Of a stretch of DNA of 64,000 bases, positions 27,129 through 27,530 are shown piece after piece. Numbering within the stretch: the stretch's first letter is position 1; the number at the start of each line of letters is the position of its first letter. Source of the DNA: an uncultured Bacilli bacterium (GTDB taxonomy: Bacteria; Bacillota_I; Bacilli_A; RF39; UBA660). The position numbers and the translations under genes were made by a program. Below the pieces are notes generated by a model that did no database searches, was not told the origin of the DNA, and saw only the letters and a list, made by a program, of their open reading frames with translations. Location: the NCBI GenBank assembly GCA_934102335.1, contig CAKOSP010000001.1:110197-174196 (forward strand), in the 5' to 3' direction.

Positions 27129-27157
27129 TTGACATAAAGTAATATTAATATTATAAT
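27129..27157 (+). promoter_or_regulatory. Near-consensus sigma-A promoter (TTGACA-17 nt-TATAAT)
   Basis: ttgacataaagtaatattaatattataat. Confidence 0.65.
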
Positions 27158-27163
27158 ATAATC

Positions 27164-27476
27164 ACTTAGTAAAGATACGGATACTAAGGTTGCTTACTTG
27201 TTTTTGTAAATTATATTCCTGTTTAGGTCGATTAATTTACTTTTTTGGAAATGGGGCGTAGCAATCTTAGTTCCTCTCTGATCCGATTACTGAGTATTAG
27301 ATTTACTTAGTATTTAGTAATTTGGTCAATTTAAATCTTGTCTGTACTAAGGATTTGTATACGAATGAAGAGCAGAAACTTCAAAGACAAGTGATTTTTG
27401 GTGTTACTGATAATATCATCGAGGATCTCTATCAAACTGGAAAGTATATCGTTTATCAGACGATATACTTTTTTTG
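27164..27476 (+). ncRNA. Candidate ~310-nt structured leader/small RNA ending in a strong intrinsic terminator, upstream of the WG-repeat-like operon
   Basis: Promoter at 27129. Hairpin CTTAGTA...TACTAAG at 27165-27188. Five or more copies of CTTAGTA/TACTAAG-type heptamers. Terminator AGTATATCGT-ttatcag-ACGATATACT plus T7 at 27443-27476. Confidence 0.35.
27443..27476 (+). terminator. Rho-independent terminator (10-bp perfect stem plus T7) inside the 5' leader of the 27531 gene
   Basis: agtatatcgtttatcagacgatatactttttttg. Confidence 0.8.
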
Positions 27477-27530
27477 TTGTAAAAATAATATATTTAAGAT
27501 ATAATTTATTTAGAATACGGAGGTATAATT

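Follow-up and report, generated by a model that had tools for sequence, protein, structure and literature searches.

This work concerns a non-coding RNA encoded in a 64,000-nucleotide (nt) stretch of DNA from an uncultured Bacilli bacterium (the window; all coordinates are those of the window). The RNA locus is the interval 27104-27530 between the genes of a 736-residue protein (24893-27103) and a 702-residue protein (27531-29639), both on the + strand. The RNA feature is real, and its promoter, folded transcript, and terminator are kept in nine orthologous loci. Its covariance-model match and its fold identify it as a full-length representative of the PGK RNAs (Rfam RF03040), an uncharacterised orphan family; base-pairing and family membership rest on computation and covariation. 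Concerning its function we tentatively favour a cis-acting conditional terminator, to which we give a probability of roughly 0.45.

A predicted transcription unit between two protein genes

The interval contains the following signals:

27129-27157, + strand: sigma-A-type promoter with the -35 element TTGACA (27129-27134), a 17-nt spacer and the -10 element TATAAT (27152-27157)
27441-27475, + strand: predicted intrinsic terminator with a 12-bp stem (27441-27452/27460-27471), the loop UUAUCAG (27453-27459) and a U tract (27469-27475)
27477-27505, + strand: second promoter-like site, TTGTAA-17-TATAAT, a 10/12 match abutting the U tract
27520-27524, + strand: ribosome binding site (RBS) GGAGG serving the gene 27531-29639 of the 702-residue membrane-anchored repeat protein

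A previous inspection of the DNA without database searches (the sequence-only reading) had proposed a near-consensus promoter at this place, and in a promoter scan TTGACA-17-TATAAT at 27129-27157 is indeed the sole 12/12 consensus match within 26500-28500. Judged from the promoter position, transcription is predicted to start near 27164 and the RNA to end at about 27475 at the terminator, giving a non-coding product of about 312 nt. The terminator arms, found by an inverted-repeat search, are 12 nt each and 100% complementary around a 7-nt loop, a row of seven T lies 3' of the loop (27469-27475), and the hairpin has a folding energy of -15.7 kcal/mol, so that the predicted terminator 27441-27475 has both the GC-containing hairpin and the immediate U tract of an intrinsic terminator. 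A strong hairpin with seven T had been seen before, but the stem, given as 10 bp at 27443-27476, was slightly understated. One terminator-like site only was detected in a 2-kb scan, compared to 0.4 in shuffled sequences. Folding of a 317-nt transcript yielded -93.3 kcal/mol versus -62.8 kcal/mol for shuffles (z = -6.45), and none of 100 shuffles was as good. From the end of the RNA (G27476, after the U tract) it is 55 nt to the start codon at 27531 of the co-oriented gene.

The interval contains only two open reading frames (ORFs) of at least 40 residues, 27322-27504 and 27398-27571, which have TTG starts and both span the terminator. Because the orthologous loci have 1-nt indels inside them, these ORFs are not conserved as coding sequence. 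The reading as small protein genes was rejected on these grounds and for the missing RBS, in agreement with the earlier impression that there is no convincing ORF.

Homologues of the 702-residue protein with 43-59% identity (loci L007, L008, L009, L232, and L234, and the metagenomic loci L228-L230) have kept an upstream gap of about 420 nt. In all eight loci the gap holds the promoter, the RNA, the terminator, and the second promoter, and the order of promoter, structured RNA of about 310 nt, and terminator, as it had been described for the window, is kept across this range of protein identity. In particular, the promoter of the RNA is kept in L007, L008, L009, L225, and L234, and the second promoter in L007, L008, L009, L228, L229, and L230. 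The gene upstream of the RNA varies among the orthologous loci and encodes a polysaccharide deacetylase or YfhO/GtrA. The homologues with 37-39% identity (L010, L235-L237) do not have the RNA upstream and thus provide no extra loop variants. The host is very AT-rich (25-30% GC), and the homologues of the downstream protein and the matching contigs are labelled as metagenome-assembled genomes (MAGs) of "Bacilli bacterium".

Fold of the RNA and conservation of its helices

The 3' third of the RNA is the Rfam PGK RNA, and the statement of the sequence-only reading that no known riboswitch class was recognised does not stand. The Rfam/Infernal scan, which had been suggested as a check, gave a match to RF03040 above the gathering score that covers the full model (positions 1-92 of 92). 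The helices P1, P2, and P3, which define the family together with the P3 loop CUGAUAA, are all present and covary. RF03040 is typed as Cis-reg in Rfam, and the position upstream of a co-oriented protein gene is also found here. The orthologues score 55-66 bits and the sister copies 74-97 bits. L234 scores under the threshold, probably due to its differing P3 loop. The PGK motif reportedly goes back to a comparative screen (Weinberg et al. 2017, NAR 45:10811; PMC5737381), whose main text does not name it, and our literature search found no paper that discusses the PGK RNA motif, its function or its mechanism. The analysis suggests that the 92-nt model of RF03040 represents only the core and about a third or less of the actual transcript. 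Beyond the Rfam model there are the promoter, the pseudoknot strand at the 5' end, the P1a hairpin, 5' arms that vary, and the terminator with its loop complementary to P3. The predicted elements of the transcript are:

27330-27420, + strand: match to PGK RNA (Rfam RF03040), core P1-P2-P3, with 61.7 bits above the gathering score of 50.8
27165-27171, + strand: strand a, CUUAGUA, the 5'-terminal pseudoknot strand, partner of 27345-27351
27345-27351, + strand: strand a', UACUAAG, in the P1/P2 internal loop, pairing with the 5' end and crossing P1
27337-27391, + strand: helix P1, CUUGUC (27337-27342) with GACAAG (27386-27391), enclosing a', P1a, and P2
27353-27366, + strand: hairpin P1a, AUUUG-UAUA-CGAAU, a self-complementary palindrome between a' and P2, outside the Rfam model
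27367-27382, + strand: hairpin P2, GAAG/CUUC with the A-rich loop AGCAGAAA, supported by the Rfam alignment and by family and orthologue covariation
27393-27427, + strand: hairpin P3 (27393-27403/27417-27427) with the loop CUGAUAA at 27407-27413
27434-27439, + strand: conserved single-stranded AAACUG immediately before the terminator, present in nearly all copies with AAACU[A/C/G]G as the consensus of the family
27179-27274, + strand: arm P0a with the closing helix 27179-27194/27260-27274
27197-27213/27233-27255 and 27218-27220/27225-27227, + strand: inner helices of P0a in the minimum free energy (MFE) structure
27279-27328, + strand: hairpin P0b (27279-27300/27307-27328), from RNAalifold on seven orthologues

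Family members were collected with a pattern search covering one genome per species, which listed at least 120 loci, about 80 of them genuine. The pattern fixed the sequence of the P3 loop and loop variation is therefore unsampled in the scan loci. A profile of four sequences used with nhmmer found 2 of the about 80 real copies, so that a covariance model was needed. In the family alignment of 63 sequences 90.9% of the cells are paired, versus 36-50% if the partners are slid against each other, and the covariation amounts to 0.443 versus at most 0.096 in these controls. In the orthologue alignment, including the pseudoknot and a loop-loop helix described below, 89% are paired versus 38-48%. 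Thus, the helices covary across both orthologues and family when the homologous upstream regions are compared, as had been proposed for a check. P1 is paired at 98.4% family-wide with five of its six pairs changed on both sides, and all 11 pairs of the P3 stem have changed on both sides in the family alignment. The P3 loop CUGAUAA is the same in every collected copy except L234, its invariance in the scan loci being imposed by the search pattern.

The strand order a, 5' strand of P1, a', 3' strand of P1 corresponds to an H-type pseudoknot with P1. A helix of 7-10 bp between a and a' is found in about 50 of 53 copies, which represent 31 sequence types, including the compensatory types GCUUAG/CUAAGC, GUCUAG/CUAGAC, ACCUAGA/UCUAGGU, UGUCCU/AGGACA, and UAGACC/GGUCUG. 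RNAalifold recovered this helix independently in a sister subfamily, with AU changed to GC in seven sequences and CG to UA in four. Among the orthologues the a/a' helix is 98% paired. Two other pairings were considered and rejected. Pairing of the 5'-end GAUAA with the 5' strand of P1 as an alternative to P1 is lost in L118 and L208, where P1 is CUAAUC/GAUUAG. A nested alternative from RNAalifold, the 5' UUAGUA with UACUGA of the P3 loop, was dismissed because other subfamilies vary the 5' end yet retain the P3 loop.

At the P1a position most copies carry a stretch of 10-16 nt that is complementary to itself. A perfect palindrome of 8 nt or more is found there in 64% of the 53 copies analysed and in 10% of the shuffles. 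The central four bases are AAUU, UAUA, AUAU, UGCA, UUAA, or GAUC, with loops UAUG and UGUA as exceptions. The self-complementary P1a hairpin could be an RNA dimerisation site.

The sequence-only reading had counted at least five copies of the heptamer CTTAGTA/TACTAAG. There are four exact ones, CTTAGTA at 27165 and 27306 and TACTAAG at 27182 and 27345, and two near-copies, CTTAGTT at 27266 and TACTGAG at 27289. The heptamer is not enriched across the window (16 found, 11 expected), but the four within 187 nt form a strong local cluster where by our estimate about 0.05 would be expected. They had been thought to constitute a protein-binding array. Instead, they are accounted for as helix strands of a/a', P0a, and P0b: the inverted repeat 27183-94/27260-71 closes P0a, and the pair TACTGAG/CTTAGTA (27289-95/27306-12) sits inside P0b. 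The long closing helix of P0a is formed by different sequences in L008, L009, L230, L228, and L234, and 11 of the 20 pairs of P0b show changes on both sides. The 5' domain thus has the same two long arms in all seven orthologues, built from different sequences. A binding array is not supported because the heptamers serve as paired strands that are seen with different sequences in the orthologues. The 5' hairpin CTTAGTA-loop-TACTAAG, also proposed earlier, can form in the window but is absent from L009, L230, L228, and L234. In our model, the pseudoknot closes over the two long and lineage-variable arms P0a and P0b.

The P3 loop CUGAUAA and the terminator loop UUAUCAG are exact complements and both are 7-nt loops in the window. 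The terminator stem covaries at 10 of 11 pairs while its loop, UUUAUCAG(A), stays constant. L234, which was found via its protein and not via the RNA pattern, has CUGACAA together with UUGUCAG, which is a compensatory change from U-A to C-G. In copies with the loop UAUUAUCAGUG the complementarity is lengthened to about 10 nt. We infer that the loops of P3 and of the terminator, 7 nt each, pair with each other, either within one molecule or between two. A natural compensatory mutant of this contact already exists, and the contact, the pseudoknot, and the P1a loop are testable structural features.

A dedicated protein might read CUGAUAA, UUAUCAG, AAACUNG or the UAG heptamers and either set termination in the manner of PyrR, TRAP or ANTAR proteins or be titrated by the RNA. 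The single-stranded motifs adjoining and within the terminator are invariant, many unrelated targets in one lineage resemble a protein-controlled regulon, and an RNA-only alternative structure was not found, all of which would agree with such a protein. However, the heptamers are explained as covarying helix strands, the complementary 7-mers have changed together in L234 as expected of RNA-RNA pairing and not of a shared protein site, and no candidate protein is linked to the loci. We therefore regard a protein-dependent mechanism as improbable.

Family distribution and possible function

Among the matches listed, the genuine loci are almost all from uncultured gut or rumen MAGs, and the record labels read Bacilli, Tenericutes/Mollicutes, Erysipelotrichaceae, and Clostridium sp. 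CAG:524. A near-consensus TTGACA-17-TATAAT is found 160-380 nt upstream of the P3 loop in nearly every copy, and a promoter match of at least 10/12 is present at the equivalent position in about 70 of 81 family copies. The 5' ends following the promoter are conserved, for example UUGCUUAGUAA, UUGUCCAAUAG, UUAACCUAGAG, and UUAGACCUAAAG, and the family transcripts would have 290-500 nt. The families encoded downstream, counted among the same matches, are:

about 125-residue membrane protein: 20 loci
about 118-residue protein: 14 loci
phosphoglycerate kinase (pgk), the origin of the name: 9 loci
Fic: 5 loci
repeat protein of the window: 4 loci
CotD-like, HU, ClpB, LPG-synthase-like, PrsA-like, dCMP deaminase, and ABC ATPase: fewer loci each

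Each RNA subtype keeps to its own downstream gene family across species, which is the case for pgk, Fic, HU, clpB, CotD-like, and the small membrane proteins. The subtype of the window gene is characterised by the P1 helix CUUGUC/GACAAG and does not have the extra hairpin between P3 and terminator. Because the subtypes are loyal to gene families, the copies represent old paralogues and not a recent repeat. L217 and L220 contain tandem RNA copies upstream of a single gene.

In a divergent lineage (31-36% GC; L142, L155, L149, L178, and L153) neighbouring RNAs occur in pairs, for example at 5734-5884(+) and 7466-7621(-) in L142, 7270-7423(+) and 7656-7797(-) in L149, and 3273-3419(+) and 3634-3787(-) in L178. 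Within a pair, one RNA contains two CUGAUAA but lacks UUAUCAG, and its neighbour shows UUAUCAG in an internal hairpin and does not have CUGAUAA in its P3 loop. Such neighbouring RNAs may pair in trans through their complementary loops. In L215, clpB has its own consensus promoter after the PGK RNA terminator, flanked by the inverted repeat TTAGCACTT-N9-AAGTGCTAA, reminiscent of the HrcA operator CIRCE. A gene for HrcA is present in the window at 33371-34375.

In some MAGs there are several copies per genome region, and CTGATAA/TTATCAG is an inverted repeat already in the DNA. The region might be a repeat, a remnant of a mobile element or an operator, with the inverted motifs acting in DNA or having no function in RNA at all. 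This is very improbable. The compensatory changes maintain RNA helices including G-U pairs, the copies have diverged over a long time and keep their synteny with particular genes, and the window has one copy only. BLAST against phages and plasmids gave only short AT-rich chance matches. Two pattern scans of viral contigs likewise gave chance matches only (85 and 12), none of the first 85 being found by nhmmer with the A1 profile and none of the second 12 by Rfam. These comparisons gave no sign of a known repeat or insertion sequence fragment, which had been named beforehand as a finding that would speak against the claim.

The sequence-only reading had offered an attenuation leader and an independent small RNA (sRNA) as explanations, and this is still the right pair of alternatives. 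If the RNA is a cis-acting conditional terminator, transcription would by default terminate and release the 312-nt RNA. A signal at the pseudoknotted core or at the loop-loop contact would alter the efficiency of the terminator, which in turn would determine how much transcription starting at the strong promoter upstream extends into the next gene. For the window gene, such transcripts would supplement those from its own promoter at 27477-27505. In 68 of the 81 copies a start codon with RBS follows on the same strand within 400 nt. For 18 of these 68 the distance from the U tract to the start codon is 14-45 nt, too short to accommodate a promoter, and these genes therefore depend on read-through. 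Accordingly, a leader that controls read-through is favoured in at least 18 of the 68 copies, but the gene of the window also has its own conserved promoter. The loyalty of the subtypes to their genes and the tandem copies fit a conditional terminator.

Several observations speak against a conditional terminator. The competing antiterminator that had been expected was found neither family-wide nor in the window. The best complementarity of the terminator 5' arm to the upstream RNA is 8.39 nt across the family versus 8.38 nt in mismatched controls. In MFE folds of truncated transcripts the 5' arm of the window terminator stays practically unpaired until its 3' arm has been transcribed. These folds contain only a weak CUGGAAA/UUUAUCAG hairpin, which is not general, and neither they nor the alifold structures show an alternative pairing of the terminator. 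The recurrent T3-like segment AGUAGUUAUU in the 5' domain of one subfamily was tried as a candidate and rejected, since it pairs locally and ignores the changes in the terminator. The window terminator is strong (12 bp, -15.7 kcal/mol, U7) and the own promoter of the gene directly abuts its U tract. Among the 50 copies with room for a promoter 86% agree with the consensus at 9 or more of 12 positions, although this carries little weight in AT-rich DNA, and the terminators of copies that have such room are neither stronger nor weaker than those of copies that lack it (-11.3 versus -10.8 kcal/mol). The downstream genes do not share a metabolic theme that would point to a ligand. In addition, the loop-loop pairing is supported by a single compensatory event, and the alignment built with the covariance model (A4) is biased towards the structure of that model. 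The missing antiterminator would still be compatible with a non-canonical control of termination through the loop-loop contact. Tuning of termination by this contact, if it takes place, would amount to attenuation with no antiterminator involved.

The missing antiterminator, the equal strength of the terminators, and the gene's own promoter make an autonomous stable RNA a close rival, and we consider it a real possibility. Here, the terminated 312-nt transcript would itself be the functional molecule, acting in trans, associating with itself or serving as a structural RNA. Its terminator hairpin would be a docked part of the mature fold, and the downstream genes would use occasional leaky read-through. 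It would explain why almost every copy combines a near-consensus promoter with an efficient-looking terminator whose loop is part of a conserved contact, and why the 5' end is buried in a helix. The size of 290-500 nt with long variable arms, the own promoters of the downstream genes here and in many copies, and the self-complementary P1a loop of most copies point in the same direction, as does the lineage whose neighbouring RNAs have only CUGAUAA (twice) or only UUAUCAG, suggestive of pairing in trans. There is also a weak similarity of 38.8 bits, under the gathering score, to the independently expressed Bacillus sRNA ncr1015 (PMC2965217). However, it is hard to reconcile with an autonomous RNA that 18 copies have a gap of only 14-45 nt between U tract and start, with genes in need of read-through, that co-orientation with the next gene is near-universal, and that every subtype goes with a single gene family. 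Base-pairing with the mRNA of the next gene is not supported either: an antisense role was considered and dropped, as the RNA is no more complementary to the following 120 nt than expected (mean z +0.43, with no value under -2).

Elements of both explanations can be joined into a model for the whole family that we think is unlikely in this full form. PGK RNAs would be paralogous, pseudoknotted RNAs of 300-500 nt with own promoters, in which a sensor loop docks on the terminator loop, in cis or between molecules via the complementary loops and the P1a loops, and governs termination or RNA assembly in place of an antiterminator.

Neighbouring genes and known RNA systems

The 702-residue product is acidic at its N-terminus and has a single membrane span, and its repeats abound in aromatic residues and in Gly, Asn, and Asp. 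Pfam gave nothing above threshold for it, and the homologue P0075 has PF14903. Its gene is always followed by a gene for a protein of about 282-309 residues (29572-30477 in the window) and then by a T-box/tRNA-synthetase unit. The T-box leader at 30507-30674, 3 kb downstream of the RNA, scores 97.9 bits against a gathering score of 93, is kept in L007, L008, and L010, and precedes the gene of a class-I tRNA synthetase (30711-33239) that is valyl-type by Pfam. The 736-residue protein upstream (24893-27103) starts with a membrane anchor followed by ..GATYAYFQA.., an N-terminus that may resemble the signal region of the TasA/SipW type. L172 encodes a 626-residue protein with a similar N-terminus (..GLTYAYFLT..), whose gene is preceded by a PGK RNA and a CotD-like gene. 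Several metagenome contigs (L003-L006) end within the 736-residue gene. Further upstream, cotE seems to be split on the + strand, with residues 1-43 of CotE at 14075-14203 and residues 41-174 at 23942-24310; Pfam CotE matches the ORF 23906-24340 at profile positions 39-175 of 177. The about 9.7 kb between the pieces end with the gene of a large serine recombinase (22252-23913; Resolvase, Recombinase, Zn_ribbon_recom), and the interruption looks like a sporulation-excised element of the skin or SPbeta type.

The PGK motif is a catalogued orphan RNA, and what this locus contributes is the extended architecture. Its hosts here are uncultured, low-GC, small-genome Bacilli from gut and rumen, in which the RNA precedes genes of housekeeping and of the envelope (pgk, HU, clpB, PrsA-like, and spore-coat-like). 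For annotation this means that the gaps of about 400 nt in these MAGs are RNA genes or leaders and not overlooked ORFs.

The window RNA shares with RF03040 the P1-P2-P3 core with the GAGAAAG..AAACUC hairpin and the UACUGAUAAUAU loop as well as the position upstream of co-oriented genes, which encode phosphoglycerate kinase in nine loci. It differs in size, as the Rfam model comprises 92 nt and the transcript proposed for the window 312 nt. The similarity to ncr1015 (RF02449) consists in a hairpin with a CUGAU(U/A)AUAUCA loop followed by a terminator, aligned to 27357-27476. However, the score of 38.8 bits stays below the gathering score of 60 (E = 4e-4 in a search of 551 nt), so that the window RNA does not belong to this family, and the ncr1015 consensus shows no clear complementarity between hairpin loop and terminator loop. 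Northern blots have identified ncr1015 as a discrete sRNA located between genes on the opposite strand (Irnov et al. 2010, PMC2965217).

If the RNA acts alone it would join the large bacterial RNAs of unknown function. Like raiA, OLE, ROOL, and GOLLD it has several hundred nt, a pseudoknot, variable arms, putative self-association loops, and an orphan function, but no sequence or model match connects the window RNA to any of these. 3D structures of large ornate bacterial RNAs including GOLLD are reported in a cryo-EM preprint on "RNA-only complexes" (10.1101/2024.12.08.627333).

With the riboswitch and T-box attenuators of the Bacillota the PGK RNAs have in common a structured leader that lies between a constitutive promoter and an intrinsic terminator ahead of the gene, the many paralogues per genome in front of different genes, and a conserved core combined with a variable domain. 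Unlike those, PGK RNA has no detectable mutually exclusive antiterminator and no evident features for binding a ligand or tRNA, and the conserved element of its expression platform is the loop of the terminator and not a strand of its stem. Contacts between loops are well known from the 7-nt loops of ColE1 RNA I/RNA II and from the hairpins of the guanidine-II riboswitch. Similar to these kissing RNAs, PGK RNA has two hairpins with fully complementary 7-nt loops whose pairing is kept by one compensatory change. What sets PGK RNA apart is that one of the two loops belongs to the intrinsic terminator of the transcript itself.

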